Source of the DNA: Halarcobacter sp.
Lineage (GTDB): Bacteria; Campylobacterota; Campylobacteria; Campylobacterales; Arcobacteraceae
Assembly: GCA_963676565.1 (NCBI GenBank)
Contig: OY781089.1
Span: 2,368,001 to 2,432,000, forward strand
Direction: 5' to 3'
DNA length: 64,000 nucleotides
Position numbers and translations under genes: made by a program
Notes under the pieces: generated by a model
What the model saw: only the letters and a program-made list of their open reading frames with translations
Told to the model about the DNA's origin: nothing
Database searches by the model: none
Part shown: piece by piece, positions 47 through 18,251 of the stretch
Numbering within the stretch: position 1 is the first letter of the stretch
How the letters are laid out: every line of letters begins with the position of its first letter

Positions 47-1225
47 TTATCCCCTTTTTATAATATGAGGTAATCTAATACCTTTATGCTCTACAATATC
101 GTCTTTAGATATTGATAAAAACTTGTTATACTGTAAAGTAAGCCTAATGAAAATTGATAAAAATTGCTTTTTATCTAAATCTTTCTGTTTCAAAAATGAT
201 GCTAAATCTAAATCCTGCTTAATAAAGCTTTTATAAACTTTTTTTGTACTTAATATAACTTTTGTTTTTGAAACTTTTTTATCATTAGACTTTATTGGAT
301 TAGGTCTTGCTTCATTCTTTTCATTTTTGTCTTCTTTGGATTTATATTGTTCTTTTGCAATACTCACTATTGATTCTATTAGTACTTCGTCATTCATATA
401 TTGTGGTCTTACTTTTATTGGATCAGCTATGTTTTCTAACCTTGTTACAACCGACTCAATATTGCTCTTTTCAAATAATTCTCCATTTACTTTCATCTTA
501 TACAAATGATTTAATTTTTCTATCTTTTTTGCTTCTTTTTCAATATGCATTAAATATTTTGATAATTCATTTAATGTTTTTCTAATATTCTCTCTTACAT
601 CATGTATATAGTGAGCTAATTGATTAGTATGAAAAGAAATTGATTCATTACCTAGCTCATCTACAAAATATGACTTATACTCTATTAGAAATTTATCAGT
701 ATTACTAACAGCTTCAGACAATGCTGTTAAATCAGCTTTACAATCATATAGATTAGCTTTTTTAACTTCAAAGTTTGTTTCTGCTTTAAACTTCATCTCT
801 TTTTCATTAAGTGATTCAATTACTCTATAAATTATCTTTTTAATACTTCTCAATGTAGAGTTTATTCTTTTTATTTCATTTGAATAAAACTGATTATCTT
901 TTCTTTTAATATTAATATCACGAATTAACTTCTTAATATTTTTTTGCTTTTCCTCAATATCTTTGATATTAACATCTGTATAAGTTTTTAAATGTGCGTT
1001 ATAATCATCACTAAGTAATAAAGAATAAGAATACTCATCATAGTCAAATACATTGAAATCAATAAGTTTTTCAATAACTAAAGATAAATCTTTATTTTTT
1101 TTAGCATCATAATACGGCATATTCTCGACATATTCAATGCTACCTTTAAAATGAGCATCAATAATTGCTTCTTTTGCTTCATTTTGTGCTTTAATAAATT
1201 CTTTAGGATTGATATTTGTTGTCAT
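47..1225 (-). CDS. Helical/coiled-coil protein, probable MksF/JetA-like kleisin
   Basis: 392 aa. N-terminus INPKEFIKA resembles Pseudomonas MksF-type IEPKRVLRA; winged-helix-like segment then long coiled coil; defence-island context. Confidence 0.5.
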   Translation of the reverse strand: MTTNINPKEFIKAQNEAKEAIIDAHFKGSIEYVENMPYYDAKKNKDLSLVIEKLIDFNVFDYDEYSYSLLLSDDYNAHLKTYTDVNIKDIEEKQKNIKKLIRDINIKRKDNQFYSNEIKRINSTLRSIKKIIYRVIESLNEKEMKFKAETNFEVKKANLYDCKADLTALSEAVSNTDKFLIEYKSYFVDELGNESISFHTNQLAHYIHDVRENIRKTLNELSKYLMHIEKEAKKIEKLNHLYKMKVNGELFEKSNIESVVTRLENIADPIKVRPQYMNDEVLIESIVSIAKEQYKSKEDKNEKNEARPNPIKSNDKKVSKTKVILSTKKVYKSFIKQDLDLASFLKQKDLDKKQFLSIFIRLTLQYNKFLSISKDDIVEHKGIRLPHIIKRG

Positions 1226-1627: not shown

Positions 1628-2503
1628 TTAAACTAAATAATCTTTTAACACGTTATTTAGCTTATCTTTTAAATATAACGGCTCAACAATCTTAATATAA
1701 GGTATCCAATATTTAACTACTTTTAGTATTTCATCATCATAGGATACTTTTGTAGAAATAATTAGATAATCATCATTTTGCTCGAGTGTTTTTTGATTTG
1801 AAAATATCTTTCTTCTCTCAAAATACTCTTTAGCTTCATTGTCTATTTGTAGAATTACTTCTATTTTATCAGTAAACCAGTTACTTTTATTTTTTTCAAG
1901 TTCTTCTAAAAACTCTTTTTTAGGTTTAAAACTTTTATTTTCATCTTTCCAGTTAAAGTTTTTAATCTTTGAAAAAGTAAACGTTTTCAACTTTTCATCT
2001 TCTTCTGCCAATAGATACCAGATACCATTATTATTGATAAGTTTATATGGATTTACAACTCTAATTATTTTATTAAATTCAAAACTAATAGGACTGTTTT
2101 TTACAATAGCTGCACTTATTTTTTCAAATTCATTTTGTTTATAACTTATATCTTCAAAACTATGATTTTTAATAAGATATGCTTTATTTAATTTTTCATT
2201 TAAAATATCTGCAATAAATCCATCTGTTAACTCAGGATAAAGTGATTTAATACCACATAATGTTGCAAAACTTTTTATATCTCTAAAACTTAATTTTCCT
2301 AGAGCATAACTTGCTAAACTATAATCATCACCATTTTTTTCAATTGGAATATAAGAGAATCGTTCATTAATATCTCTTTGAATAGTTCTTATACTTACTC
2401 CAAATTCTTTAGATAAGCTTTTAGTATTAAGTTTTTCACCATTGTTTAATTTTGTAAGAATTAAAGATAGTCTAGTAGCTAATTTATCATGTTCTGTAAC
2501 CAT
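1628..2503 (-). CDS. WYL-domain transcriptional regulator (HTH-WYL-WCX)
   Basis: N-terminal HTH (LSKEFGVSIRTIQRDI), WYL motif (VNPYKLINNNGIWYLLAEE), C-terminal EILKVVKYWIPYIKIVEP. Confidence 0.93.
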   Translation of the reverse strand: MVTEHDKLATRLSLILTKLNNGEKLNTKSLSKEFGVSIRTIQRDINERFSYIPIEKNGDDYSLASYALGKLSFRDIKSFATLCGIKSLYPELTDGFIADILNEKLNKAYLIKNHSFEDISYKQNEFEKISAAIVKNSPISFEFNKIIRVVNPYKLINNNGIWYLLAEEDEKLKTFTFSKIKNFNWKDENKSFKPKKEFLEELEKNKSNWFTDKIEVILQIDNEAKEYFERRKIFSNQKTLEQNDDYLIISTKVSYDDEILKVVKYWIPYIKIVEPLYLKDKLNNVLKDYLV

Positions 2504-2523
2504 AAGTTAATACCAATTTTTGC

Positions 2524-2925
2524 TTATATTAATCCTTTAATTCTATCTATTAAAAAATTTTTGAATTTTTTTTCTAATTTGTTACATCGATTATAAGTAC
2601 ACTTATATACTTCGTCATCTTTATCTACACAGAAAAAAGATCCATCTCCAGACTCAAAAAAAACTATTAAATTATTTGGAAAATTTTCAATTATACTTCT
2701 ATGATATAATGTTGAATGTATAGCACTTGGTAAAACATTGTTATCTTTGAAAATTCCATAAAATTCTAAATATTCTACTTCTAATGTTCCAAATTCTAAA
2801 AGAAAACTTTTGTATTCATTTCCCAATTTAATATTTAATTTTCTTTCGAAATCATTAATATCTTTATCTATAACATGGTTAGTTAATTCAAAATCTAAAT
2901 TTAATTTTTTTATTTCACTATACAT
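2524..2925 (-). CDS. SMI1/KNR4 (SUKH) immunity protein
   Basis: DINDFERKLNIKLGNEYKSFLLEFG and ESGDGSFFCVD motifs; overlaps the stop of the upstream nuclease gene. Confidence 0.9.
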   Translation of the reverse strand: MYSEIKKLNLDFELTNHVIDKDINDFERKLNIKLGNEYKSFLLEFGTLEVEYLEFYGIFKDNNVLPSAIHSTLYHRSIIENFPNNLIVFFESGDGSFFCVDKDDEVYKCTYNRCNKLEKKFKNFLIDRIKGLI

Positions 2926-3523
2926 TTAAATCCCTTTCTTTTTTCATTTCTTCTGCCCTTGCTTTCCAGTGATCACTTCTTTCTTTATCCCAATTAACTT
3001 CACTATTCTCATTATGTACTTCTGTTTTTTGCGTCTTATCATGAAGAGCAGAATCATTTTTTTTATGAACATTATCTTTTAATTCAGCTAAAGGTGAATC
3101 ACTTTTTTGTCCAATATGATGCAAGTTATATGGCTTACCATCTTCATCTAATGGAGCTAGTCCTTTTTCCATTCTTTCAAGGTTTGTTCTTCCTTTACTA
3201 TCTACTAAATCAGGATCAATATTAGTATCTTTTAAAGTTATTCTGTCGTTAACTTTACCTTCTTCTAAGCCTTCATTTTGATAAACATCCAATTCTTCTT
3301 CTGTTATTATGTAATCATTTATATCATCTGAATAATTAGTTTTTTCTTTTACTTTTTCATCCTCAGTTTCCTTGTCAACTTCACTTCTAACAATACCATG
3401 TGTAACAGTTTTTAAAAAATCTGGGACATTAGTAGATTCTTTTTTCTCTTTACCAAACTCAGGGGTATTATCTGATATTTTTTTAACACTTTCTTTTGCA
3501 ACTTCAACTATTTTTTCAATCAT
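2918..3523 (-). CDS. HNH/EndoVII-fold LHH nuclease toxin
   Basis: GRTNLERMEKGLAPLD..GKPYNLHHIGQ..SPLAEL...H...LH...RSDHWKAR is the LHH family signature; acidic N-terminal extension, no signal peptide. Confidence 0.9.
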   Translation of the reverse strand: MIEKIVEVAKESVKKISDNTPEFGKEKKESTNVPDFLKTVTHGIVRSEVDKETEDEKVKEKTNYSDDINDYIITEEELDVYQNEGLEEGKVNDRITLKDTNIDPDLVDSKGRTNLERMEKGLAPLDEDGKPYNLHHIGQKSDSPLAELKDNVHKKNDSALHDKTQKTEVHNENSEVNWDKERSDHWKARAEEMKKERDLNV

Positions 3524-3535
3524 CTATTAAATCTC

Positions 3536-6500
3536 CTAAAAGTGATTTCTATGCCAATTACCATAATGTTGTTCAAAACCACTTGTATCGCAAGATTCAC
3601 AATACATAATCATATCTTTTAGATGTAATTCTAGATATAAGTTATCATCAATATTTACATTTTTTTTAATCAAATTAGAAAAATTCAAATCATACTCTTC
3701 CATACTTTTCGCATTTTTAATTCTTGATAATATTTTACTTCCATCTAAAAGTTCATTTATAATCTTTGCTTTAGTTTTTTTATCAATACTTTTAGATGTT
3801 TTTTCATTATTAGTAATTTCAAGCAATTCATCTTTTATATTAGTTGAAATATTCATGGTATTAATATATTCTGTTAAATCTTTTAACTTTATATTATCAA
3901 CTCCTAATTCTAGTTTTTCATTAAGCTCTTCAAAAAGAAGTATTTTTAATAAACTACTCATTAAGTTGTTATGTGTATTTATAACATCTTTAAAAGAATA
4001 ATTAAGTGCTTTAAACTCTTTTTTATCAAAGACATCTATTTTACATAATACAGCTTCTAACCAGTTATTTTGATATACAATAGCTGTTCCTGTACTAAGT
4101 TTTGGAATTTCATTTATTTGCTCATCGTTTAAAGCAGCAGACCTACCAATATCATTTCTATCTGTATATTCAGGTAATCTCATTATTATTTTTGTTCCTG
4201 TATTCCTAATCGCTGAGATATCAAGCATATTTGGAGATTGGTCAACAATAATAAATCCTTCTCCATAAGTTCTCATTTCTGCTATTGCATTAGAAATCAT
4301 TTCAACTGATTTTCCTTGAAGGTTATTTCCTTCAGATGATTGTTCTGTTGATGTTCTTTTTAAAATATTATGTGCTTCTTCTAGTACAGTAACATGTTTG
4401 AGACTTGAGTCTAATGTTTCTTTGTTAGAATATCTGTATTCAATTAATCTTAATACAATCATTCCCATAAGAAGTGATTTTGTTTCCATAGAACCAACTC
4501 TACTTAAATCAACAATTACATTTGTATCAAATAGTTTATCATCACTAATAGGATCAATATTATTTAAAACTTGTCCTATTAGACCATTATTTAAAGATTT
4601 TACCCTAGTTAATAATGCACCTTTATAATTTGACTTCATCTCTTCTGAATAACTAGAGTCATCAATTATTTTTTCTAAAGTATTAAGTAGTATTTTAAAA
4701 GTAGGATATCTTTTTGTCTCATATATTGAATAAGATAAATCTGTATCCCATCCTACCTCTTCATAAGATTTGATAATTGCATCTTTTAACACTTCAGGCA
4801 TAGCTGCATACATAGGCCAACAAGCATTAAATATTTCTACAAGCCTATCAATATGCTCTAAAACATGAATTTCATCATGAAAACTAAAAGGGTTAAGTTT
4901 TAATACTTCTGAGTATTTTGAATTTGTTCCCAAAACTGTTACATCTTCTCTTCCCCCAAATACCTCTTTATATTCACCTTTAGCTGGTTCAACTACAAGA
5001 AATTTTACATTATTTTTATCTAATTGATTCAAAATACTATAAAGAGTATTCGATTTGCCTGCACCTGTTGATCCTGTAACTAAAGTGTGCATACTTAAAC
5101 TGTCAATGTCAAGTTTTATAGGAGTATTATGTTCTAAAGTTCCAAGATGTGTTAGTTTTCCAAGATTGATAGTCCTTTTTGAAGATGAGTTGTCTAAAAG
5201 ATGTAAACTTCTTCCAAACTCTACACTCTCTTCAACAGCTAAACCTTTTACAGATTTTCGTGGAAAACTCATTGCTAAAGAGAGTTCTTTACTACTAATT
5301 AAACTTGTTGGTTTAATTTCCATATCTATATTATTAAGACTAATTTTTGGATGCTCAAAATTTTTTAAATAAGGTATTAATTTAATAGATTCGCTTATAT
5401 TCCAACTGACAACAGACGATTTTTCTAAGGAAGACACTTCTCCTCTAGTAATAGACTTATATGTACTTGCTGCAATTTTTGCATCTTCATGACTGTCTGA
5501 AATAAAATATGCTGCAAAATCAAACATTCCATAATTTTCAGATTCAATAATTCTTTCAATCTGTTTATCTATTTTTTCTAAAATATTCTTTGCTGTTTTA
5601 TTTTCATAATTTATTTGATAAGTCTCTGATTGACCTGTCGTATTTGACTCTGAACTATTTGTACCTTTCATTGTACTTTCAGAAGTTCCTTTATTTAAAC
5701 TTTCACTATTGCTTTCAGATTTATTTTTAGAATAACTTGCAGAAGCTATTAAAACACTAAGGTTTCCAGATATACTTTCACCTTCTGAGATACTTGTTGT
5801 TTTACTAAGTGATTCAGTTACTGTATTTGTAAAGGATGAACTCATACCATCTGTTATAGTCATACTTTCATTCTTACCAAAACTTATTTGTTGTGAGCTA
5901 AAAGGAAGAAGAGATGAGTATATTTTTTCATATGCAGACCTTCTTTGTGTAATGGCAGAATCAGATACACTATCAGCTATAAATAAAGCTGTATATTTTT
6001 TACCATTCATTGCTTCAATAAATTTTTCTATACCTTGGGAAAATGATTCTTTATCATTACTTTTTAAAGAAGGAACTCCATTTGCCAAACTTACTGCTAT
6101 ATTATTTGAATTAAAAATTTTTTTGTTTACTAGCTCTTCAATTTCTGAGTTTAAAAACTTCTCTTCTATTTTACATCCTGGAAAATTTCCAGATAATGAA
6201 CCAAAATATCCATTTTCAAGTAACTTTAAATCCTTATTTTCTGACTTTTTTGTTCCTAGATAAATTTCTATTTCATTGCCATTAGAATAAATAATCATAA
6301 TAGCAGAACCACCCAGTGAATTTATTGTAGTATAAACACTTGTAAGCTTATCTTGAATATCTTCATTTTTATCAAAAACTATTTTTCTTACTTTTTTTAA
6401 TCTAACATTTTTTGCTGGCTGAATTTCTTTTATAGATGTTAAAATAGGATAATCTGATATGTTTTCAAGATATCTCTTTTCTATTACCTCTTCTACACTT

Positions 6501-6550
6501 TGAAAAGATTTTTTTAAATCGTCAACTTTTAATACTTCATTTCTTTCCAT
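3536..6550 (-). CDS. HerA/FtsK-superfamily (DUF87-like) ATPase with Ser/Thr-rich N-terminal region
   Basis: HTLVTGSTGAGKS (Walker A), TVLEEAHN (Walker B), AEMRTYGEG and IVDQSP motifs; 1004 aa. Confidence 0.88.
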   Translation of the reverse strand: MERNEVLKVDDLKKSFQSVEEVIEKRYLENISDYPILTSIKEIQPAKNVRLKKVRKIVFDKNEDIQDKLTSVYTTINSLGGSAIMIIYSNGNEIEIYLGTKKSENKDLKLLENGYFGSLSGNFPGCKIEEKFLNSEIEELVNKKIFNSNNIAVSLANGVPSLKSNDKESFSQGIEKFIEAMNGKKYTALFIADSVSDSAITQRRSAYEKIYSSLLPFSSQQISFGKNESMTITDGMSSSFTNTVTESLSKTTSISEGESISGNLSVLIASASYSKNKSESNSESLNKGTSESTMKGTNSSESNTTGQSETYQINYENKTAKNILEKIDKQIERIIESENYGMFDFAAYFISDSHEDAKIAASTYKSITRGEVSSLEKSSVVSWNISESIKLIPYLKNFEHPKISLNNIDMEIKPTSLISSKELSLAMSFPRKSVKGLAVEESVEFGRSLHLLDNSSSKRTINLGKLTHLGTLEHNTPIKLDIDSLSMHTLVTGSTGAGKSNTLYSILNQLDKNNVKFLVVEPAKGEYKEVFGGREDVTVLGTNSKYSEVLKLNPFSFHDEIHVLEHIDRLVEIFNACWPMYAAMPEVLKDAIIKSYEEVGWDTDLSYSIYETKRYPTFKILLNTLEKIIDDSSYSEEMKSNYKGALLTRVKSLNNGLIGQVLNNIDPISDDKLFDTNVIVDLSRVGSMETKSLLMGMIVLRLIEYRYSNKETLDSSLKHVTVLEEAHNILKRTSTEQSSEGNNLQGKSVEMISNAIAEMRTYGEGFIIVDQSPNMLDISAIRNTGTKIIMRLPEYTDRNDIGRSAALNDEQINEIPKLSTGTAIVYQNNWLEAVLCKIDVFDKKEFKALNYSFKDVINTHNNLMSSLLKILLFEELNEKLELGVDNIKLKDLTEYINTMNISTNIKDELLEITNNEKTSKSIDKKTKAKIINELLDGSKILSRIKNAKSMEEYDLNFSNLIKKNVNIDDNLYLELHLKDMIMYCESCDTSGFEQHYGNWHRNHF

Positions 6551-6608
6551 TAATTTTCCTTGGTAATTTGACTTAACTCATTCATCTTTTGTATGGTATT
6601 ATTAATAT

Positions 6609-7064
6609 CTATTTTAGTAAAACTATTGCTGCTACTACTCCTACAGCTAGTATTCCTATTATTGCAAGAGTGTTGTTCTTTGAGCTTTTTTTTTGTGAAA
6701 TCTCAATTCTCTCTTCTTTTTTTGTTTCATTAGTTTTAATTTCTACAGGAAATATAAACTTTCCAAGTTCCCTTACATGGTCAAGTCTTTCTTTTGAAAA
6801 GTTTCTTTGTAGTTTTACTTTTTGTTTATTAAAATAATCTTCATCCCATTGCTCTTTAGGAAGAATAGGACATAAGTTATTATCATGCTTTTCATATAGT
6901 TCATCATCTGAAATTTTATTTCTTAATAAACTTAATCTTTCTTCAACTTCTCTTCGTTCTCCATTTGGATCTAAAGCATTTGAACTTTCAATTGATATCC
7001 TAATATCTTCAATATTTTTCTCTTTTATATAGTTTTCAAATTCAATTTTACTTTCTTCTATCAT
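6609..7064 (-). CDS. Hypothetical protein with C-terminal membrane anchor
   Basis: 151 aa; ends in LAIIGILAVGVVAAIVLLK after a basic patch; 10 nt from the dynamin stop. Confidence 0.8.
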   Translation of the reverse strand: MIEESKIEFENYIKEKNIEDIRISIESSNALDPNGERREVEERLSLLRNKISDDELYEKHDNNLCPILPKEQWDEDYFNKQKVKLQRNFSKERLDHVRELGKFIFPVEIKTNETKKEERIEISQKKSSKNNTLAIIGILAVGVVAAIVLLK

Positions 7065-7074
7065 TTTGAGCCTT

Positions 7075-9315
7075 TTAATTAATTAAGTTTTCTTTCTCTA
7101 AATTATATTTATCTATCCAATTTATGATTTTTTCATGATTTTTAATCTCTATTTCAAGATGTTCTTTATTATTTATTAAGTTACTCATTTTTTGTATTTC
7201 CGTAGTTATAATTTGTCTAACTATATCAATCTCTTTAGTTGCAACTATCTTAATATTTGCTAACTCGTTTTCTGCTTCTTTTATTTCATTATTCATTTTT
7301 TTTAAAAAAGACTGTCTTAACTTTAAAAACTCTCTCTCTAATTTTTTTGAATCACTTTTTGTTTTTATATTTGGTATCCACTCTTTACCTGTTTCCCAAA
7401 ATTTAATACCCCAAAAAGAAACTGCATATTTGGTCTCATACTTACCTTCATCTATTTCTTTCGAGGAACCTTGTAAAATCTTTTCCTTACTTGGAAGCAT
7501 TGACTCAGAAAAAACTTTTACACTATATGACATTTCTCCTAATTCAATGTCATAAAAAGTTTTTGATATCTCTTCTTTAAACTCATTCACAATTTCTTCA
7601 GTTTTAACTTTTATATCTGAATGAACTTGTTGTTCAAGAGTTGTTTTAATTGATGTTTCTAAATCTGAAATTGTCTTAAATATACTATCTAGTTCTCTTT
7701 TTGCTTTACTTACCTCTATATCACGATTAAAAATACTCTTTTTAAGTATTTCATTAAATTTTCTTTCTAATTTTTCTTTTTCTATATCAATTGGTTCATG
7801 GGATATACTAATTGATTCAATTTTTTTTTTAAAGTTATCAACACTTTCTTTACTAGTTATTTTTATCGAAACTTCTTGTAACTTTTCTTTTAAATCGTTA
7901 TTTTCATCTTTTCTCTTTTGTAGTAAATTCAGTAAGTCATCTCTCTTAACTTCTGTGTTTACGGCTTTTTCTATTTCTGTAAAAGCATCATGTATTTTCA
8001 TAGGTATTGCATATTTATTTACATAATCATCTATCGCCATTTCTAAAGATGGTATTCCTGAATGGATTTCAGCTTGAGTAACCCAATCATTTTCCTCTTT
8101 AGCTTTTTTTAATTTATCTTCGATGATAGATTTTTGTTGATTTGTAATTGGAGCATATTTCTCAAAATAATGATATTCTCTTTCTTTCTTTACAACTTTT
8201 TCACATATATCTAATGCATCACCTTCATCATCATCTAATTCAAAACCTTTTAAATTCTTTCTACAACATAAGGCTCTATATGATGAGATAGGAAATATTT
8301 TTGTATCTTTAATATTAAGACCTTCTAAAAACTCTTTTGCATTATTAATCATTTTATCAACTTGTGTTTTATTAATATCATCAGCTTTATTAAGTACAAA
8401 AATAAATCTCTCATGATCTTGAGAAGTATTTTTCTTATTTATACTCTCTGCTATTTCCTCTAGTAAATCATTTGTACCGTCGTCTGTTAAACTATTAGCA
8501 TTTAGTACATAGATGATTAAAGGATTTTTTTCTTCATCTTTAATTAATGTATAAGTAACCTTTTTATGTTCTTGGTTCTGTGCATTATTAGGTCCAGGGG
8601 TATCAAGTAGTACTAGATTAGCTACACTTGACGAAATGTTTGGTATGTCTCCATTTAATCTAATTTCATGAACATTTTCTTGTTTATTCGCATTTTCAAG
8701 TTGTTCTTCTAGAGATTCGCCAAAAACTTCTAATGATTCGCCATTTGAATTTAATAAATTTACAGAAAAATTTTCGGCATAGTCATCATCGCGTATTGAA
8801 AATATTTTTGCAGTAGTTGGTTCATTTCTTGCAGGAAGAATAGATTGTCCTATCATAGAGTTGATAAGAGTCGATTTTCCAGAACTCATAGTTGCTACTA
8901 TTGCTACTTCAAATTCTGTATTAAGTTTATTTAAAAATCTATTTATAAGTTCTTCATTTTGACTAATACCTTCAATCGGTGAACTTCTAAGTATTGATTC
9001 AAATTTTTTTATCTTTGTAATATCTATATTATCATATTTTGATTCATGAATAATAGTTAAATTTATTCCATTATTACTATTATAACTTTTGCAAGAATGT
9101 AATAAATCTTCATATTCAAAACTTCTTCCTATAAATATAAGATTTATATTCTTTTCATTACATTCGTTAAAGAACTCTTCTGGTATGTCATCTATAACAT
9201 CTATTAATCTTTTATTCTTTAATTTACTAAATTTTTCATCATTAGTTAATTCATCTTCAATCCAAATTTTAGTTTCATTGAAAAATGGATTATGTTCAAT
9301 TGTAAAGTTTGACAC
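7075..9315 (-). CDS. Bacterial dynamin-like GTPase
   Basis: G1 ATMSSGKST, G2 PTT, G3 DTPG, G4 NKAD; long C-terminal coiled coil with a hydrophobic tip (YAVSFWGIKFW); GTG start. Confidence 0.88.
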   Translation of the reverse strand: MSNFTIEHNPFFNETKIWIEDELTNDEKFSKLKNKRLIDVIDDIPEEFFNECNEKNINLIFIGRSFEYEDLLHSCKSYNSNNGINLTIIHESKYDNIDITKIKKFESILRSSPIEGISQNEELINRFLNKLNTEFEVAIVATMSSGKSTLINSMIGQSILPARNEPTTAKIFSIRDDDYAENFSVNLLNSNGESLEVFGESLEEQLENANKQENVHEIRLNGDIPNISSSVANLVLLDTPGPNNAQNQEHKKVTYTLIKDEEKNPLIIYVLNANSLTDDGTNDLLEEIAESINKKNTSQDHERFIFVLNKADDINKTQVDKMINNAKEFLEGLNIKDTKIFPISSYRALCCRKNLKGFELDDDEGDALDICEKVVKKEREYHYFEKYAPITNQQKSIIEDKLKKAKEENDWVTQAEIHSGIPSLEMAIDDYVNKYAIPMKIHDAFTEIEKAVNTEVKRDDLLNLLQKRKDENNDLKEKLQEVSIKITSKESVDNFKKKIESISISHEPIDIEKEKLERKFNEILKKSIFNRDIEVSKAKRELDSIFKTISDLETSIKTTLEQQVHSDIKVKTEEIVNEFKEEISKTFYDIELGEMSYSVKVFSESMLPSKEKILQGSSKEIDEGKYETKYAVSFWGIKFWETGKEWIPNIKTKSDSKKLEREFLKLRQSFLKKMNNEIKEAENELANIKIVATKEIDIVRQIITTEIQKMSNLINNKEHLEIEIKNHEKIINWIDKYNLEKENLIN

Positions 9316-9667: not shown

Positions 9668-9754
9668 ATGAATATACCTCCTACTGTAGTAGTAGCCATT
9701 ATTATCGCTTCTGCAACGATTGTAAAAGAGTATCTTGAATCAAAAGAAAACTAG
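9668..9754 (+). CDS. 28-aa hydrophobic peptide MNIPPTVVVAIIIASATIVKEYLESKEN
   Basis: Translated by hand; AAGGAG upstream; starts 1 nt after the previous stop. Confidence 0.55.
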   Translation: MNIPPTVVVAIIIASATIVKEYLESKEN

Positions 9755-9809
9755 TTTTAGTCAAAGACTATTAATTCAATTAAACAATAAAAATAAACAA
9801 GGAAAAATC

Positions 9810-10628
9810 ATGTCAGTAAATCCATTAACAAACGAGCAACTAAAAAAGTTAGCTCCTTCAATCTTCAGTGAAACACCAATAGAAGGAGTTTCGGAGCAAT
9901 ACACTTTTGTACCAACACATTCAGTATTAGATACATTTAGAGAAGCTGGCTATTATCCAATTATGGCTAGTGAGAGTAAAGTAAGAAACTCTGAAAATCA
10001 AGGCTATCAAAAACATATAATTCAGTTTAGAAGTGTAGATAATATTCTAAGACCAAAAGCTAATGAAGAGTATGCAGATATTGTATTAACTAACTCACAC
10101 AATCGTACATCATCATTCATTGTAGATTTAGCTTTCTTTAGAATCGTATGTTCTAATATGCTTGTAGTACCAAGCCAGAGCTTTATTCACCACTCTATTA
10201 TGCATAAAGGCTTTAACTTTTTAAAAGTAGATAATGCAATAAATGAAGTAGTTTCATATATGCCAAAAATGAAAGAACAAATTGAAAGCTTTAAATGTAT
10301 TCCTTTATCTAAAATAGAGCAACACTCTCTTGCTAGTGCTGCTATTGATATTAGATTTGATAGAAAACTACATGAAGTATCTTCAAATGAACTTCTAGCA
10401 GTTAATAGAGAAGAAGATGAAGATAATTCATTATGGAATGTATTTAATCGTATTCAAGAAGCAATCATAAGAGGTGGAATAAAAGGAAAAAATAAACATA
10501 CAGGTAAAAGTTTTACTTCTAAAGCTATTACAGCAATTGATGCCAATTTAAAATTAAATAAAGAGCTATTTACTACTGTTCAGAATATGGCAATGCTAAA
10601 GTCTCAAGACTATGCAATGGCTGCATAA
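9810..10628 (+). CDS. DUF932/DUF945 family protein
   Basis: LAPSIF, SEQYTFVPT, KHIIQFR, IVLTNSHN, FRIVCSN and LWNVFNRIQE motifs; ATG 9810 after AAGGA. Confidence 0.88.
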   Translation: MSVNPLTNEQLKKLAPSIFSETPIEGVSEQYTFVPTHSVLDTFREAGYYPIMASESKVRNSENQGYQKHIIQFRSVDNILRPKANEEYADIVLTNSHNRTSSFIVDLAFFRIVCSNMLVVPSQSFIHHSIMHKGFNFLKVDNAINEVVSYMPKMKEQIESFKCIPLSKIEQHSLASAAIDIRFDRKLHEVSSNELLAVNREEDEDNSLWNVFNRIQEAIIRGGIKGKNKHTGKSFTSKAITAIDANLKLNKELFTTVQNMAMLKSQDYAMAA

Positions 10629-10638
10629 GGAGTATGTT

Positions 10639-11205
10639 ATGAAAATCAAAAAGTATAGACTTCAAACAGAGATGGAAAATCTAAAAGTAGGAAGTGAAAA
10701 ATGGTTTAAAGACTATCTAAAAGAGTTGTTAGAATCAGACAAACCATACTATGAAAAAGCAGACTATATTGCTTACTGTGTTAATCAACTACAGGCAAAG
10801 ATTGATTATGTCTCTTCTGAAATTAGACATCTTCAACAAGTTAAAAAGTCTTTATCTTCTTCAAAAGAGTTAGCTATGGAACTTACTGCATCTGTTTTAG
10901 CCGAATATGGAATTGATAAAATTGAAGGAGTAAATATCTCTTCAATCACAGTAACTGCTTCAACTACAAAAAGTAAAGATGTAATTAACTTTAAAGATGA
11001 AAATAAAATTATGGGACTAGGATATGTAAAATTCTTAGTTGATGAAGAAGCTGTAGAGAAAGCTTTAAAAAGTAATGAATCACAAGAACTAAAAGATCTT
11101 GTAGATATTATAACTATCAAAGAAACAAGTCCTTCTAAGATTAAAATCAATAATAAAAGAAACCAATCAAACAATGAAGTGAAAATAGAAAAACAAGTAG
11201 CATAA
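10639..11205 (+). CDS. Siphovirus Gp157-like coiled-coil protein
   Basis: KADYIA...LQAKIDYVSSEIRHLQQVKK...YGIDKIEG pattern; directly upstream of a Rad52-family gene; TAAGGAG RBS. Confidence 0.6.
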   Translation: MKIKKYRLQTEMENLKVGSEKWFKDYLKELLESDKPYYEKADYIAYCVNQLQAKIDYVSSEIRHLQQVKKSLSSSKELAMELTASVLAEYGIDKIEGVNISSITVTASTTKSKDVINFKDENKIMGLGYVKFLVDEEAVEKALKSNESQELKDLVDIITIKETSPSKIKINNKRNQSNNEVKIEKQVA

Positions 11206-11215
11206 GGAGAAAGCT

Positions 11216-11893
11216 ATGTTTAATGATAAACAAATAAAGACATTAGAAGATGAGTTAGACTCTTCAAGAATTAAAACACGAGACAAAGGAAACATCAACC
11301 TCTCATATTTAGAGGGGTTTGATGTAATTGAAACAGCTAATAATGTGTTTGGTTTTGGGAATTGGTCATATACTGTATCAAAACTAGAACAAGTATCTCA
11401 AGAAACAAATGTCAATCAAAACTATGTAGTTTGTTATAAAGCAGTTCTTAGAGTAATAGTTTATAATAATACGCATACTATCAATGTAGATAGAGAAGAT
11501 GTAGGATTTGGAACTGGAATTGCTAAAACTTTAGCTGATGCCCATGAAAATGGAGCAAAAGAAGCTATTACAGATGGATTAAAAAGAGCACTTAGGTCTT
11601 TTGGAAACCAGTTTGGTAACTCACTATATGATAAGAGTAGAAATCATAATAAGCAAAATCAAAGAAACCAACAAAACAAACAAGTAACCCATAATCAACA
11701 AACTCCACTTTCAAACAATCAAAATCAAAGAAATACTAATCAAGGATTGAATCAATATGAGTATCAATCCCTTTACAATCTAGGATTAAATATCCTTGAA
11801 CAAAATGGCTTCTTAATAGTTGTAGGTGATGATATTTTTGCTAAGAAAGATTCTATTAAAGCTTGTGGCTTTAGATGGGGATGGAAACTCTAA
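11216..11893 (+). CDS. Rad52/Rad22 (Sak-like) single-strand annealing protein, frameshifted near the C-terminus
   Basis: LSYLEGFDVIETANNVFGFGNWS, REDVGFG, AKEAITDGLKRALRSFGNQFGNSLYDK. Confidence 0.92.
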   Translation: MFNDKQIKTLEDELDSSRIKTRDKGNINLSYLEGFDVIETANNVFGFGNWSYTVSKLEQVSQETNVNQNYVVCYKAVLRVIVYNNTHTINVDREDVGFGTGIAKTLADAHENGAKEAITDGLKRALRSFGNQFGNSLYDKSRNHNKQNQRNQQNKQVTHNQQTPLSNNQNQRNTNQGLNQYEYQSLYNLGLNILEQNGFLIVVGDDIFAKKDSIKACGFRWGWKL

Positions 11894-11929
11894 GCAATGG
11901 TATAAATCACTAGAACAAGGGGCTGCTTA

Positions 11930-12229
11930 ATGGAATTAATACCAAATGAAATAAAAGATAAAATTCCTAAGCTATATGATACAGAAGATATTTCAGACCC
12001 TATTGTTCATATAAAATTATTCTTAGATGGATGGACTTGGTACATAACCGAACTTTCAATAAATGATGATATATGCTTTGGATATGTTGTTTCTCCATAT
12101 GAAAGTGAACTTGGATACTTTTCATTAGAGGAGTTAAAGTCATTAAGAGGAAGATTAGGAACTTGGGTTGAAAGGGATTTGTTCTTTAAGCCAACACCAT
12201 TATCAAAAATAAAAAAGGGAAGAAGATGA
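11930..12229 (+). CDS. DUF2958 family protein
   Basis: IPKLYDTE..PIVHIKLF..WTWYITE..FGYV..ELGYFSLEEL..ERDLFF. Confidence 0.88.
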   Translation: MELIPNEIKDKIPKLYDTEDISDPIVHIKLFLDGWTWYITELSINDDICFGYVVSPYESELGYFSLEELKSLRGRLGTWVERDLFFKPTPLSKIKKGRR

Positions 12230-12919: not shown

Positions 12920-13960
12920 TTATTTTCTATTAAACCTTGAGGTGCCGTATATGTAGTTTTCTTTTTTACAAATTTTAAACTTACCATTTGCACTAAAAGT
13001 AATAGTATCTATCATTCTAATAAATTTATCAATATTAGATAAGTTAGTTTTTATTGTAATTGCAAATAATGAAGCTTTTTCAATAAGTTCTGTTCTCTCT
13101 TTATTTGAGTTAGCCTTATTATACTTTTTAGTAAAATTGTCCTTTTCCTTTAAATCTTCAAAGTAGAGAACTTTGTAATCTTTTAACTCTCTAAGAAAAG
13201 CTTCAATTGAAACTTTATTATTTAAGAAGTATCGATTTTGTAACTTCATCTCAAAGCGTGTCAAAGAATAGCCTAAATTATAATTACTTTTATCAATAAG
13301 CTGTTTTCTTTTATCATACAAATAAGCTCTCTTTTGAACATTGTTTCTTCTTTTCCTTATTTCTGCCAATAGTTTCTCTTTTTCAGTGAACCATTTTTTA
13401 TCATCATGTCGCGTAAACTTCTCTACATAAAATGTACCGTTATACATCTGGATTCTATTGCCACTATTATCGCACTCACCTAAATCATGGTACTTTTTCC
13501 TACTTTTTCTATTTATGGGGACAATTACTGTATTATTTATTTTATAAGGCATATCCATACATATATCAAGTTGAGAGATCATAGGAACTAGGCTTTTATC
13601 TTTATTTATAAAAGCCATTACATTTTTAAGTAATAATTCACTTTTTTCATCTAAGTCTTTTATGTGTCTCTTTAGACCATAAAAATTTATACTTACATAA
13701 TAGTTTGTAATTTTAGAGTATGGGTTTGGATAGCCACTTTTAGAAATATCACCAATAGTGGTATTAGAGTTTATTAACTTAGTACATTTAAAAAACTGAG
13801 TACTTTTCCTTTTATCATAACATAAACCAACTAACTTAGTTGTTTTTATAAAATTCAATAATTCACTGTAGATAAGATCTCTTTTATTCTTATCTACAAA
13901 ATCTATTCTTAAAGATAGACTATCAATATAGCCATCAAAAAACTCTTCTTTATTCTTCAT
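12920..13960 (-). CDS. Replication initiator/relaxase-like protein (Rep_trans-like)
   Basis: IDSLSL, ISQLDICMD, AYLYDKRKQ and LTRFEMKL in the order expected for Rep_trans/phage CRI initiators. Confidence 0.6.
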   Translation of the reverse strand: MKNKEEFFDGYIDSLSLRIDFVDKNKRDLIYSELLNFIKTTKLVGLCYDKRKSTQFFKCTKLINSNTTIGDISKSGYPNPYSKITNYYVSINFYGLKRHIKDLDEKSELLLKNVMAFINKDKSLVPMISQLDICMDMPYKINNTVIVPINRKSRKKYHDLGECDNSGNRIQMYNGTFYVEKFTRHDDKKWFTEKEKLLAEIRKRRNNVQKRAYLYDKRKQLIDKSNYNLGYSLTRFEMKLQNRYFLNNKVSIEAFLRELKDYKVLYFEDLKEKDNFTKKYNKANSNKERTELIEKASLFAITIKTNLSNIDKFIRMIDTITFSANGKFKICKKENYIYGTSRFNRK

Positions 13961-14371: not shown

Positions 14372-17300
14372 TTATTTAGTTTCTTGCTTTTTTTGTAGTT
14401 GTTTTCTATCATATTTATCATACATCTTTTTAGCGGTTTCAATATCTTCATACTCATATTTAAATCTCGCTTTTCCTTCTCTATTTGTAATTATAAATCC
14501 CTTTGGAACTAAAATGTCTTTTGCTAATTTATAATTTTTTATTCTTGAAAGTTTTTTATAGTTAACTTCTTTAAATGAAGAAACTCCTTCAAGTAAAACT
14601 TTTTCTTCACCTTCTTCATTTATTGCTTTTATAACATCTGATTCTTGTTTAAACATTTCATCTTTTTCTTTTAATTCATTAATAAATAAAGTCTTATTTT
14701 CAAAATTATGATTATTATAGATTTTACAAAAATAATCAAAAAGATACTGATTAATAAAATAGCCTTTTTCTAAAGCAGCTTTTAGAGGTTTATATAATTC
14801 TTCGTCATCTTTTAAAGTATCAAAATACTTTAAATCATAATTTTTAAAAGCTAATATAAAATCATCCACTTGAGAAGCAGAAATTTTTTCATTTGTTTTT
14901 TTATCTTTCACACTATTATCTATATCTCTGTCTTCTGTATTTAATGCATATCTTGCAAAATGTCTATCTATTGGATAAGTTGATAAAATAGATGAAAATA
15001 GATCTATATCTTCTAGAATTTTTGTTTCTAGTGTACTTTCATCAGGTACTTCTAATTTTTCAAGAATAGTTTGTAAATCATTGACTTTTAAAACTGTACA
15101 TTTTGAATAACAAGATTTAGCAATTTCATATACTTCATCAGATGTAATTATTGTCTGCCCATATATTGGTACTATTTCAAACTTATTATCTTTATTCTTT
15201 GTTTTTACTGATTCTTTTACTAATAATTCTTTTAATATTTTAGATAAGGTTTCATTATTAAATTTTGACTTTTTATTATCTATAGTACCTATATGAAAAA
15301 ATATCTTATTTTTTATTATATTTGATATCTCAACTTTACTATATTCTTCATCACTTATAGTTGTACAATATTCAAAACCAAATATTTGCTTAATAATAAG
15401 CTCTAAAAATAGTTCTTCTTTTACAGTTCTATCTCCTACCAAGGCTATTGCTACATTTGTTTTTTCTAATCTCTTAAAAAAGGAAGCTAACCAATTCATT
15501 ACATATGTATAATTAATAATATCTTCTTTCACCATATAATAAATAAACTCCTCAATAAAAGATTTTTTGCCATTATCCTTAAAACTATAGTTTTCTAAAA
15601 TTGAAGTATTAGATTCAAGATAAAAATTGCTTTCATTTTTATAAAAAATTTTTTTCTTCTTATCTAGTGTTAATTCGAAAGATGATTCTTTTTTAACATC
15701 AATATATCTGCACTCTTGATGTCTTTTTAGTAAATTTTTATTATGGACAAATAGATTTCTAGTCAAATTAAGACTATAATAACATTTAAAAAACTCCTCA
15801 GAAACTGTAATATCAAAAACTTCATCCTCTACTATAGGTATTTTATTAGAAAAAATACATATTACAAACATATTATTCAAATTCAATTTTTCAGTAATTT
15901 TAGTTGCTTCTTCAATATTATCTACAATTCTAACTTCTACTGAAAAAAGCTTATTCCTATTATAATTTTTTCTAATTATGAAATCATTTATTTTTTGATT
16001 AACTGAACTATTTATTTTTTTACTTATTTTTTTCTTGTCACCAGACTTTACTTTACTACTAATTCCTGCTCTAAAGTAATATTTGTCATCTTCATTATTT
16101 AACCACAAACATAAATCATCTCTATTTATAATATTTAATACAATATCTTGCCAAAAATAAATATCATCTAGTTTATATTCTCTATCTCTTTGTTTTTGAT
16201 AATCACTTTTTAAATTTGCAATATTTATATTATGGATTTTCTTTTCTAGAGATATAATTTCATTTAATGAGTTCTTATATCTTTTTATTGCTTTTTCATC
16301 AGATAAGTATTCAAATAATTTGTTTAAACTATCTACACTTTCTTTATTGAAATTATTTTCATAAGGTATTATTTCTTTATGATCTTGTACTACTGGTGAT
16401 TTTTCTTCCACAATATTATCCTTTAATAAAAGCCAATTAGGATTAGACTTTTTTCTTATTTCTATTTCATTACTATATGCTTCGTTATCAGCTTTTTTTA
16501 TTTCTTGAAAGTTTTTTATCTCTTCTTCATCACATTCACTATAAATATATTTATTTAATTCATTTATTTCATTTTTGATAAATGATAAATCCCGTCTTAA
16601 AAATTCTAATCTATACTCATTGGATAGTAATTCTTTTATATTTAAAAACAATTTTATTAGAATATAAAAAACTGGACACTTATTACTATCTTGTGGAATA
16701 TTAATATCATTATTTAATAGGTCCTCAAATATATTTATAATAAAACTTTTGTAAATATTCTTAAAGAATTTAACTTCAGAATCTTCTAGAGTAATCGAAA
16801 AAAATTTATTATTTTTTATCTCCTCTAAATATCTATATAAAGGATAGTCAATCTCAATTTTAAAAGACTGTGTATCACTATTATAAGTAAAAGAAAATAA
16901 AATAAGATTTCTAGAAAAAGAAGTTGCCGTGATTATATTATAGATATTTTTCCACTTATGAAGAGTATAAATGTCTATTCTTGGTAGTTCATTTATATCT
17001 TTAGTATCAAAAGTATAATAATTATTTTCTTCAATATTAATTTTAAGCTTTTTTTCAATAACAATATTAAATATTTTGTAAATATAATTACTTAAAGTAC
17101 TGTGAATAGCATCTTTTAAAGCCAAGTTACTACAACGTGAACAAGATTCATCAAGAGGATTAAAAATCAATTTAGTTTTAATTATCTTTTCAGGGATTAA
17201 AGTCCAATCATCATTAGCTAAAATCATTTGTTTATTATCAAATATCAATCTGTAAGAGTTCTTAAGATTTTTAGAGTACAAGTATTCTAACTTATTTACT

Positions 17301-17396: not shown

Positions 17397-18251
17397 TTAT
17401 TTAATTTTATTATAATGATTATTCCACTCATCTACAATAAATTTGTTATCTTCAACAATATTAATGTAGTCATTTGCATCTAATCCAAACTCTTGTGCTT
17501 TTTTTTTAATCATAGTTTTATATGAGAAGTCAAGAATAGTATCATTTTCAAAAGCTTTTTTTAACTCTTCTTGAAAAGATTCTATTTCAAGTTTTAGCCC
17601 ATGTAAATGTTTTATATGTTCGCCAATCTCAATATCCCACTCTAATCTATGATTTAAAGCACTTACAATATTTTCTTTTGAATATTCTATACCAATTGCA
17701 TCTTTAAATTTTTTATTTATATCTTCAATAAGAGAAGATATATTAACTTCTTTTAAATCTCTTAAAATAAAATATAAATCAAATAGATCTTTGATTGTAT
17801 CAGGACGATCACATAAAGCTTTTAGTTTATACAATAAAAGATTATATAAATTTTCTGTTCTAAATATATCTTTATTTACAAATGTAAAATCTTTTAATCT
17901 TGTACAAGTAAAATTTAGGATTTCAATTTTTACTGTTTCATCATTATCTTCAAAATCATAAAACATTCTCCAAGACAGTTCATCTTTTATCCATTTTGAA
18001 TTTACAAGTTTAGCTTCTGGAAGTTTTGATAATAAACTTAATATTTCATCTTTAATTTCATCTAGTTCTGTTTTATCACATAATTTTTCTAAAAAAAAGT
18101 CTAAATCTTCTGAATTACGATAGGCAGTTGGTAGTACAAATCTTTGAAGACCTGTACCACCAGCAAGAAACATTTTATTATTTAAAGGTTTTAATTGTTC
18201 AAGTATTTTATCTTGATTTTTAAATACGCTATCCCAATCATCTCTATGCAT
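17397..18251 (-). CDS. AbiEii-family nucleotidyltransferase (type IV TA toxin)
   Basis: FLAGGTGL..YRNSEDLDFF, YKLKALCDR..KDLFDLYFI. Confidence 0.9.
   Translation of the reverse strand: MHRDDWDSVFKNQDKILEQLKPLNNKMFLAGGTGLQRFVLPTAYRNSEDLDFFLEKLCDKTELDEIKDEILSLLSKLPEAKLVNSKWIKDELSWRMFYDFEDNDETVKIEILNFTCTRLKDFTFVNKDIFRTENLYNLLLYKLKALCDRPDTIKDLFDLYFILRDLKEVNISSLIEDINKKFKDAIGIEYSKENIVSALNHRLEWDIEIGEHIKHLHGLKLEIESFQEELKKAFENDTILDFSYKTMIKKKAQEFGLDANDYINIVEDNKFIVDEWNNHYNKIK

Follow-up and report, generated by a model that had tools for sequence, protein, structure and literature searches.

Six co-oriented genes on the minus strand of a 64,000-nucleotide stretch of Halarcobacter sp. DNA (contig OY781089.1; the whole stretch is called the window here) form, at positions 1628 to 9315, one copy of a horizontally mobile cassette that consists of a VirB4-like ATPase, a swappable toxin tagged with a leader, a cognate immunity gene, and an exchangeable upstream module. 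We consider it fairly probable that this cassette represents an unnamed class of conflict systems across phyla, in which a VirB4-derived ATPase handles polymorphic toxin-immunity cassettes via the leader, under plug-in sensor modules that carry a common adaptor domain. Such a class would be either the first antiphage system with a motor-released, leader-tagged polymorphic toxin kept by an immunity protein of the competition type or a minimal VirB4-plus-dynamin export route with a conduit made from an insert of the ATPase. The parts of the window copy, in the direction of transcription, are as follows.

7075..9315, minus: dynamin-like GTPase, 746 amino acids (aa), the input module of the window copy (Pfam Dynamin_N, E = 1.1e-19, residues 137-311)
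8971..9315, minus: adaptor domain at the N terminus of the dynamin, about residues 1-115 (profile searches from dynamin N termini)
6609..7064, minus: small tail-anchored membrane protein, 151 aa, with one C-terminal hydrophobic segment
3536..6550, minus: VirB4-like ATPase of the HerA-FtsK superfamily, 1004 aa, the constant core (Pfam DUF87/HerA central domain, E = 1.3e-14)
5171..6550, minus: ATPase residues 1-460, an N-terminal domain folded like that of VirB4/TrwK
5627..5875, minus: Ser/Thr-rich insert of the ATPase with a hydrophobic middle, residues 226-308 (AlphaFold2 [AF2] model and homologue alignment)
3542..3994, minus: all-helical C-terminal domain of the ATPase, residues 853-1003, its least conserved part (AF2 model)
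2918..3523, minus: polymorphic toxin, 201 aa, with leader, acidic linker, and C-terminal LHH nuclease of the HNH/EndoVII type (Pfam LHH, E = 1.8e-26)
3344..3523, minus: leader of the toxin, about residues 1-60, a helix starting with MIE followed by the proline motifs TPEFGKE and NVPDFLK
2524..2925, minus: SUKH (SMI1/KNR4) immunity protein, 133 aa (SUKH_5, E = 1.6e-16; SUKH_6, E = 2.2e-14; SMI1_KNR4, E = 1.1e-11)
1628..2503, minus: wHTH-WYL-WCX transcription regulator, 291 aa (Pfam HTH_11, E = 2.8e-6; WYL, E = 1.5e-7; WCX, E = 1.3e-5)

An initial annotation, made from the sequence of the window alone, had described these six genes as a candidate new system, and its layout was reproduced by the open reading frame (ORF) coordinates, with spacings from 5' to 3' of 10, 58, and 12 nucleotides (nt), an 8-nt overlap, and 20 nt. 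Pfam agrees with the domains it had named (dynamin, DUF87/HerA, LHH, SUKH, and WYL), and the GKS, EEAH, and LHH motifs can be read in the translations. For the six proteins, models of known defense systems (PADLOC, 2023 copy) returned only generic matches to HerA, mad8, and WYL; dynamin, membrane protein, toxin, and immunity protein went without a match. In a scan of the AT-rich DNA of the window, promoter-like sites numbered 59 (expected, 60.7) and terminator-like sites 2 (expected, 1.4).

To see how far the cassette has spread, we scanned one genome per species for relatives of the ATPase; 198 pattern hits gave 123 confirmed relatives, the best 80 of which were kept as loci (numbered L001 onward), many of them on short contigs. 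Genes in these loci were called as longest ORFs by greedy choice, and start codons are uncertain because this gene calling is crude. The loci come from Bacillota (Paenibacillus, Bacillus, Clostridium, Ruminococcus, Lachnospiraceae, and others), Bacteroidota, Fusobacteriota, Campylobacterota, Desulfovibrio, Oxalobacter, and others, and monoderms and diderms have this small set of genes in common; the best ATPase relative belongs to a Sulfurovum metagenome-assembled genome. Searching the 80 loci with the window proteins (phmmer) placed a dynamin just ahead of the ATPase in 43, often as a tandem pair, with 5 more added by Pfam, and found the small membrane protein between dynamin and ATPase in 21, LHH in 8, SUKH in 6, and WYL in 8. 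A co-oriented gene follows the ATPase within 150 nt in 71 loci. The gene order noticed in the window thus recurs in dozens of loci of several phyla, as well as on Lactococcus and E. coli plasmids, and the recurrence of neighbors, toxin genes, and immunity genes across the loci of relatives rules out a chance gene cluster. The conjugative dairy plasmid pB26B of Lactococcus cremoris carries a WYL gene, two dynamins, two hypothetical proteins, an ATP-binding protein, an HNH endonuclease, and a further hypothetical protein, while an IncI conjugative plasmid of E. coli carries two dynamins, a hypothetical protein, an ATP-binding protein, an HNH/ENDO VII nuclease, and SMI1/KNR4. Both cassettes carry annotations of their single genes but no name for the system; the E. 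coli copy was present in one of 5426 complete E. coli genomes at the megablast level, and 43 plasmid records match the ATPase. Among 1.84 billion representative sequences, the family-specific N-terminal 450 residues of the ATPase matched 1104 clusters at E <= 1e-3, 685 at E <= 1e-10, and 333 at E <= 1e-30, and the family is annotated merely as "ATP-binding protein," "dynamin family protein," or "hypothetical protein."

The window copy itself lies on an integrative island, as the initial annotation had proposed. The genome is a single 3.34-Mb contig with 28% G+C, and a tRNA-Leu(CAA) gene (L081:3461-3547, in the same genome) is located 16.5 kb to the left of the window. The last 18 to 19 nt of this tRNA gene recur exactly once, at window positions 20292-20309 (no chance match in 100 shuffles), and together the tRNA gene and the repeat bracket an island of about 36.8 kb. 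Its tyrosine integrase (18742-20034) is located just inside the repeat end and not at the tRNA end. Besides the cassette, the island holds a type III restriction-modification (R-M) pair, a Ppl-like ABC ATPase, RmuC, a DUF3584/DUF7281 pair, AbiEii, and a DUF932-Gp157-Rad52-DUF2958 block. The ATPase was absent from the 60 other genomes searched (24 of the same genus, 12 from other genera of the family, and 24 from other families of the order), which, together with the island setting, argues that the cassette is acquired DNA in a defense-rich island. Elsewhere in the genome there is no second copy of LHH, SUKH, the ATPase, or the dynamin, and nothing else that resembles the toxin or the immunity protein; a regular expression for the leader motif gave three matches in the genome, of which only the cassette toxin is credible. 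Sequencing runs with the same organism label contained near-identical fragments only. In a wastewater metagenome (run X3), contig pieces were about 85 to 99% identical to the cassette, and one contig bridges WYL, SUKH, LHH, and ATPase at about 98.7%; a near relative of the cassette that has the same toxin is thus in circulation in samples of this type.

The ATPase is more easily placed by its fold than by sequence models. Its best NCBIfam match is a serine-rich subfamily (NF033849, "ser_rich_anae_1"; E = 6.5e-27), at 93 bits versus a cutoff of 650; the PADLOC HerA models cover only parts of the protein (best E = 8.7e-21), and no VirB4 sequence model is among its Pfam or NCBIfam matches. Across 40 aligned ATPases, the Walker A residues G493, T495, G496, G498, K499, and S500 (GxxGxGKS) are invariant, and so are E724, E725, and H727 (EE..H) and many further core residues. 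The AF2 model (mean predicted local distance difference test score [pLDDT], 77) comprises a folded N-terminal region (residues 1-225 and 309-460), a RecA-like core (about residues 460-850), and a helical C-terminal domain (residues 853-1003). Searching structures with the whole model (Foldseek) returned HerA (4d2i, E = 8.8e-13) and also TrwK/VirB4, SIR2-HerA, DUF4297-HerA, and DndH. When residues 1-460 were modeled alone, the 11 best of the listed PDB matches were all TrwK/VirB4 of R388 (best E = 2.6e-4), and a VIA-align comparison of the N-terminal domain with 48,161 chains gave 7o42_A at Z = 16.9 (root mean square deviation, 3.7 over 264 residues), with the next best chain at Z = 8.8. Because these 460 residues match only TrwK/VirB4 convincingly, the protein is better named VirB4-like than HerA-like, and the two-domain architecture of VirB4 (an N-terminal domain and a RecA-like C-terminal ATPase with Walker A and B motifs) is present as a likeness of fold. 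This refines the HerA-like ATPase of the initial annotation, as the N-terminal half sets the protein apart from a classical HerA.

What further distinguishes this ATPase is the insert in its N-terminal domain, which is disordered in the full model (pLDDT of <50). Among 40 homologues, it spans 83 to 142 residues with 25 to 48% Ser plus Thr, and many copies contain a central Gly/Ala-rich hydrophobic stretch, which is short in the window protein. The model of the domain draws the insert as four long strands (residues 219-317) at low confidence, and 24 of 71 ATPases hold a hydrophobic 15-mer within their first 450 residues. The insert may be a membrane-inserting or conduit-forming element. Toward the C terminus, the consensus is mostly undefined past about residue 840, and many tblastn matches stop at about residues 840 to 860; neither the N- nor the C-terminal domain revealed a DNA-binding element.

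In contrast to this constant core, the genes upstream of it are exchangeable. We assigned module types from the phmmer results and from Pfam searches with 75 upstream genes of the loci without a phmmer dynamin match. One or two dynamins with a small, usually tail-anchored protein accompany 45 of 72 ATPases, that of the window included; 10 of the 72 are preceded by a 270-aa protein and two small GTPases (MMR_HSR1/septin/AIG1-like), 7 by a Sel1 or TPR repeat protein of 590 to 950 aa, and 10 are unclassified. Hence the dynamin, listed in the initial annotation as a part of the system, is present in the window and in many loci and is replaced by small GTPases or Sel1/TPR proteins elsewhere. On a FastTree phylogeny of the 72 ATPases, module types cluster, with 5 changes. 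The first proteins of the three types are related in their N-terminal domain, which is about 110 residues long. A profile of dynamin N termini matched the N termini of two Big_2 proteins (L028, E = 3.7e-10; L043, E = 1.9e-4) and of a TPR protein (L026, E = 8e-4), and after one iteration, this adaptor profile also matched the 270-aa proteins (L045, E = 5.8e-10; L029, E = 2.8e-9; and three more) and the Sel1 proteins (L037, E = 1.3e-5; L024, E = 1.9e-5). In the genome of the window, it matches the cassette dynamin only (E = 5.2e-22). The two Big_2 proteins belong to two related loci in which the gene after the ATPase encodes an adaptor-plus-Big_2 protein of about 600 aa and the toxin (TNT-domain or NS_2) comes second (L028:11096-14348 and L043:7248-9795), and this protein may be a fourth module type, located downstream.

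The window dynamin matches the full Dynamin_N profile (1-168 of 168) and shows the G1 motif GKS, DTPG, and NKAD in its translation. It matched no PADLOC family at E <= 0.01, including LeoA and LeoBC, and a sequence search against solved bacterial dynamin-like proteins in the PDB gave a P-loop match only (2j68, E = 0.008). The dynamin of locus L033 is alone here in touching the LeoBC (1.9e-15) and LeoA (1.3e-13) models of PADLOC, so the relationship between cassette dynamins and Leo proteins is distant. The same locus is permuted, with ATPase, toxin, and SUKH followed by a 394-aa adaptor-domain protein and the dynamin (L033:11122-15634); as its dynamin module follows the immunity gene, gene order is not fixed. 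The 151-aa membrane protein has no Pfam, PADLOC, or NCBIfam family and falls solely into unnamed "hypothetical protein" clusters of the ESM Atlas. Among the six window proteins, it alone has a hydrophobic segment (residues 132-150; mean Kyte-Doolittle value, 2.93), as do 13 of 18 sampled small proteins between dynamin and ATPase. Membrane location seems to be general, because each of the three module types has parts with hydrophobic segments. A Sel1 variant without a membrane part would have argued against export, but several Sel1-type loci (L024, L026, L037, and L062) have hydrophobic segments, which removes this argument.

The position directly after the ATPase is mostly taken by toxins. Pfam recognized a toxin domain there in 44 of 71 loci, from six families: Colicin-DNase/WHH (21 loci), Endonuclea_NS_2 (11), LHH (8), Ntox15 (2; L031 and L046, both with Tdi1), GH-E (1), and a glutamine deamidase (1; L076), so that 43 of the 44 are nucleases. 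The remaining first genes encode the two Big_2 proteins, which are not toxins, or have no Pfam match (25 loci). Swapping of toxin and immunity pairs, which the initial annotation had suggested looking for, is borne out by the tree of ATPases, on which toxin type changes at least 15 times; the window toxin is of the LHH type, yet the Sulfurovum ATPase relative, 64% identical, has WHH. All recognized toxin types act in the cytoplasm. At about 170 to 300 aa, the toxins are short, and they carry neither a signal peptide nor a receptor-binding region; in the window toxin, whose LHH domain covers residues 113-191 (nt 2951-3187), no signal peptide or hydrophobic segment was found, and a PDB sequence search with it came back empty. 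The TNT-domain protein of L028, the second gene after the ATPase there, is of the NADase type. Seven of the 25 proteins without a Pfam match (L011, L022, L025, L034, L044, L057, and L058) have in common the stretch GGSY..V....EVHH.PA; their next genes likewise lack a clear family, and they may constitute an uncatalogued toxin family.

A leader links these otherwise different proteins. In proteins at the toxin position, a short N-terminal helix, which often starts with MIE, precedes one or more proline-centered motifs (e.g., DVPxFAK or LPDEIGE), an acidic linker, and the toxin domain, with helix and proline motif making up a leader of about 55 residues. A strict regular expression for the proline motif matched 26 of 71 toxin-position proteins versus 2 of 652 other genes of at least 130 aa, and a start of the form M..[IVLF][EQ] is found in 31 of the 71 versus 54 of 1105 other genes. 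A profile built from nine leaders gave 14 matches at E < 1e-6, all of them directly after an ATPase and with C termini of the WHH, LHH, or unknown type. The window toxin has a diverged version of the leader, which is not an independent match, because it was used in building the profile. For none of the 71 toxin-position proteins did Pfam assign a family to the N-terminal part (E <= 1e-3), and hence no known secretion-route domain was found. Complex prediction of the ATPase (residues 1-232 and 303-1004) with toxin residues 1-60 scored 0.11 and 0.21 versus a mark of 0.32, in runs made without controls.

The next gene was available in 62 loci and encodes a recognized immunity type in 30 of them, namely, SUKH (20), YezG-like (5), Tdi1 (2), PoNi (2), or ankyrin (1), and DUF6985 in 4 more. 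Another 4 encode a toxin domain themselves, in loci with a split toxin or with a different first gene, 4 have other or weak matches (DUF7738 in 2, DUF7832 in 1, and HTH_3 in 1), and 20 have no match. Pairings are consistent and obey the rules known for such pairs: LHH occurs with SUKH_5 (the best match beside the toxin in 7 of 8 loci), NS_2 with YezG, and Ntox15 with Tdi1. With a common N-terminal region, a varying C terminus, and an adjoining immunity gene, the window pair shows the hallmarks of a polymorphic toxin. There is one pair per cassette, and 46 further downstream genes of 30 loci contained no orphan toxin or immunity arrays. The lone extra SUKH gene is the partner of a split WHH toxin in L056 (7734-8802), where a 131-aa leader part and a 65-aa WHH fragment are followed by an intact SUKH gene, and this copy is probably frameshifted and decaying.

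The regulator is a frequent accessory and not a core part of the cassette. The window gene matches the PADLOC WYL model (E = 3.3e-30), and a WYL profile found WYL genes in the same orientation next to the cassette in 30 of 77 loci, or in 21 of the 52 loci with at least 5 kb of upstream sequence (about 40%). It nearly always lies at the 5' end and follows the immunity gene in the window, L004, and L009. The regulator listed in the initial annotation is thus a recurrent partner, but it is neither universal nor usually placed as in the window.

We then compared the cassette with described systems. It resembles polymorphic toxin systems in the constant N terminus, the variable C-terminal toxin (WHH, LHH, NS_2, Ntox15, GH-E, or deamidase), and the exchange between close relatives (Zhang et al. 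2012, PMC3482391), as well as in the adjoining cognate immunity gene (SUKH, YezG, Tdi1, PoNi, or ankyrin). It differs from them in that no orphan cassettes were found downstream, and, as far as the available text of that survey goes, its leader is not among the listed trafficking domains and the combination of a VirB4-like ATPase, a dynamin/GTPase/Sel1 module, and WYL is not among the named routes (PMC3482391). With SIR2-HerA and DUF4297-HerA, it shares a hexameric-type ATPase of the HerA/FtsK superfamily beside a swappable effector, an occurrence in defense islands, and the structure of the ATPase core (8wld, 8uae, 8ziq, and 9c1n; Foldseek E = 1e-9 to 1e-10). However, the cassette ATPase is about 1000 aa long versus about 570 for HerA, has a VirB4-type N-terminal domain rather than a HAS barrel alone, and adds the Ser/Thr-rich insert and the helical C-terminal domain, and its effector is a polymorphic LHH toxin with its own immunity protein, with neither SIR2 nor DUF4297, which places the cassette outside these systems. 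Eleos/LeoABC, the Leo proteins of which have a role in enterotoxin release, and DynA of B. subtilis likewise pair dynamin-like GTPases (one or two) with a membrane partner, frequently in a defense setting, and many cassette loci have a dynamin pair; Eleos, in contrast, has no ATPase, toxin, or immunity gene, and the cassette dynamin is replaceable, so the window genes are not an Eleos system.

Two secretion systems are similar in their ATPases. The type IV secretion system (T4SS) shares the two-domain fold of VirB4, but no VirB3, B6, B8, B9, B10, D4, relaxase, or pilin was found in the cassette, the 75 upstream genes, or the 115 flanking genes that were scanned, and the cassette is thus no T4SS. 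In the type VIIb secretion system (T7SSb), EssC is likewise a FtsK/HerA-superfamily ATPase beside LXG toxins with a common N terminus and immunity genes. The cassette ATPase differs from it in having the insert and in lacking an FHA domain and an N-terminal transmembrane segment; its only FtsK_SpoIIIE match is a P-loop match of 57 residues below the cutoff, and with no EssA, EssB, EsaA, WXG100, or LXG in the cassette or its flanks, the cassette is not a T7SSb. In its wHTH-WYL-WCX architecture and its co-oriented place at the operon edge, the window regulator resembles the repressors CapW and BrxR (PMC9122588 and PMC9122601, main texts), which repress their operons until relieved by single-stranded DNA (ssDNA) or DNA damage; it is unlike them in being the last gene rather than the first. 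Dynamin, HerA, DUF87, and GTPase partners each have 0 mentions in these two main texts. No description of the cassette was found in the literature searched, that is, in main texts largely of non-subscription journals, which included Zhang 2012, Kaur 2020, Picton 2022, Blankenchip 2022, a lactococcal plasmidome study, and a 2026 domain-centric defense screen. Together with the generic PADLOC matches, this agrees with the initial annotation, which had not recognized a described system. The cassette has quite probably gone undescribed so far, and for this reason we rate it as a new kind of system.

To judge the surroundings of the cassette, we scanned 115 of 238 listed flanking genes, from the first 34 loci, with PADLOC (E <= 1e-10) and Pfam. 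Unambiguous R-M, BREX, or CRISPR neighbors occur in 6 of the 34 loci (L009, L010, L014, L016, L028, and L040), and three more have candidate or ambiguous PADLOC neighbors (L005, PDC-S03/Uma2; L025, a protein kinase; and L032, mad3, which is a plain ABC ATPase in Pfam). Pfam identified integrases, recombinases, MazF, McrB-like AAA_5, PD-(D/E)XK proteins, and many housekeeping genes among the 115 but no recognizable T4SS, T6SS (type VI), or T7SS part. Past the immunity gene are found Schlafen/AlbA_2 (3 loci), FRG, DUF2971, PARG, HTH_3 regulators, and transposases.

What could such a cassette do? The initial annotation had offered two mechanisms, and what can be gathered from sequence and context leans toward a nuclease released inside the cell by nucleoside triphosphatases (NTPases) rather than toward delivery of the toxin. 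We tentatively prefer a WYL-controlled, membrane-associated abortive defense against phages or mobile DNA, a reading that we would hold with a little less than even confidence, whereas defense overall, with the abortive form and a direct barrier to DNA taken together, comes out slightly on the probable side. In the abortive scheme, the WYL repressor would keep the operon low until DNA damage or ssDNA arises, and in the resting cell the immunity protein would hold the DNase inactive, with the leader of the toxin bound to the ATPase hexamer. A disturbance of the membrane would be reported by the module with the adaptor domain (dynamin, GTPase, or Sel1 protein), which would turn on the ATPase. 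The ATPase would then pull the leader and strip the toxin from its immunity protein, so that the freed DNase could degrade phage and host DNA alike. We prefer abortive defense because of the WYL regulators and defense-rich surroundings in the window and elsewhere and because sensor-like modules are swapped on a common adaptor domain. The same preference follows from the single toxin per system, with no other substrate in the genome and no orphan immunity genes, and from toxins that are short, devoid of an entry domain, and all cytoplasm acting, in a gene set that is the same in monoderms and diderms. The absence of T4SS, T6SS, and T7SS parts from the flanks, the Schlafen/AlbA_2, FRG, and DUF2971 genes behind some cassettes, the copy on a conjugative dairy Lactococcus plasmid, and the absence from the 60 nearest genomes were also counted toward defense.

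Several points weigh against abortive defense. Characterized VirB4 ATPases drive transport across envelopes, and we know of no established defense system with immunity partners of the SUKH, Tdi, or PoNi type. The combination of a leader that is conserved, a toxin that varies, and an immunity protein that binds tightly is the mark of polymorphic toxins that are exported; the membrane anchors in all three module types and the hydrophobic middle of the insert would also suit a translocon; polymorphic toxin loci, too, gather on mobile islands; and WYL regulators are not exclusive to defense. The enrichment of defense neighbors is an impression and not a statistic, since the counts lack a matched control of random loci. 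Moreover, the deployment routes for polymorphic toxins listed in the available text of Zhang et al. (2012, PMC3482391) are all secretory. A new toxin export or delivery apparatus for competition between bacteria is the leading rival, which we regard as rather unlikely. According to this rival, the VirB4-like hexamer would recognize the leader, strip off the immunity protein, and push the DNase through a conduit formed by its own hydrophobic-tipped, Ser/Thr-rich inserts, while the dynamin and membrane-anchor module would remodel or bridge membranes and the immunity gene would protect sister cells. A leader common to toxins with WHH, LHH, or unknown C termini is classic polymorphic-toxin anatomy, the immunity families also accompany toxins of the T6SS and T7SS, and toxins are exchanged between close ATPases; the VirB4-type N-terminal domain, an insert with a hydrophobic or glycine-rich middle and alternating Ser/Thr arms, and the anchors in every module type fit a conduit. 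Further support comes from a report on Bacillus, in the portion of it available to us, of an Ntox15 toxin (Tde) secreted without an active T7SS (mBio 2026, PMC13556189), which also describes most tde-positive gut Bacillota as lacking a dedicated toxin secretion system; two cassettes (L031 and L046) carry Ntox15 with Tdi1. Yet an exporter has to contend with an identical small gene set in monoderms and diderms that has no outer membrane part, with toxins that lack a receptor-binding or translocation region although all known types act in the cytoplasm, with a single substrate per system and none elsewhere in the genome, with the lack of orphan immunity arrays, and with the frequent WYL regulators and defense-gene neighbors. 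The structure of the insert is of low confidence, and the topology of dynamin is wrong for budding outward, as dynamins constrict a membrane neck from its cytosolic side.

Two further explanations were weighed. The cassette would be a direct, non-suicidal barrier at the membrane if the VirB4/HerA-type motor captured entering phage or conjugative DNA and fed it to the tethered DNase, following HerA-NurA logic, with an immunity protein that only guards the chromosome against untethered enzyme. The 43 nucleases among 44 recognized toxin domains, an ATPase core closest to HerA DNA translocases and HerA-effector defense complexes, the membrane association of the modules, and the defense-island context all speak for such a barrier. 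We nevertheless consider it improbable: the glutamine deamidase toxin (L076) and the TNT-domain NADase-type protein (L028) do not fit the feeding of DNA, a dedicated high-affinity immunity protein is unexpected for an enzyme that works only when docked, and the terminal domains of the ATPase yielded no DNA-binding element. Least probable of all, in our view very unlikely, is a module for addiction, stabilization, or competition between elements, in which the toxin-immunity pair would kill cells that lose the element and the NTPases would tune it. The integrative island of the window genome, the conjugative Lactococcus and E. coli plasmids with the 43 matching plasmid records, and the sporadic distribution among relatives (0 of 60) are what one would expect of it. 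For addiction, however, two small genes suffice, so that the conserved NTPase genes, which span more than 5 kb and have invariant catalytic motifs, are left unexplained, and many copies are chromosomal with housekeeping neighbors.

Should the cassette be a defense system, toxin-immunity cassettes of interbacterial warfare would double as exchangeable antiphage effectors that are released by a motor ATPase, linking two separate fields, and bacterial dynamins would be one of several interchangeable input modules. Export, on the other hand, would mean a new secretion route built on a stand-alone relative of VirB4, and it could explain how nuclease toxins of Bacillota leave the cell without a known secretion system, which the available text of PMC13556189 presents as an open question. 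Either way, the family is large, with its 1104 clusters, and it is mobile, with members on plasmids of E. coli and Lactococcus that are tractable in the laboratory.

The remainder of the island is arranged around the cassette. On its left side lies a string of defense-type genes:

L081:3993-19504 and window 47-1225, minus: left part of the island with type III Res (981 aa), Mod (622 aa), a 301-aa unknown protein, a Ppl-like ABC/SMC ATPase (1014 aa), RmuC (671 aa), DUF7281 (294 aa), a DUF3584 SMC-like protein (1240 aa), and two more ORFs

The 392-aa ORF at window positions 47-1225 is one of the two ORFs after the DUF3584 protein and has no family; the last four genes of this string may be a separate SMC-type system. 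On the other side, divergent from the cassette, the DUF932, Siphovirus Gp157, Rad52/22, and DUF2958 genes (9735-12229, plus strand) make up a recombination or anti-restriction type module of mobile elements. Between this block and AbiEii are two minus-strand ORFs of 346 aa (12920-13960) and 1003 aa (14372-17383) with no Pfam or PADLOC match. The AbiEii nucleotidyltransferase toxin (17397-18657; Pfam, E = 2.9e-15) is preceded by an overlapping 137-aa ORF without a family, presumably its antitoxin. Cytochrome c, flagellin, and ectoine genes are also found within the window. Near two cassettes of other genomes, we observed a vWA protein with a 1265-aa Tubulin_2 protein (L026:12029-18146) and, beside the Sulfurovum cassette, an FtsZ/tubulin-like fragment (L001:13941-14486), which are cytoskeletal-type genes in the neighborhoods of conflict systems.

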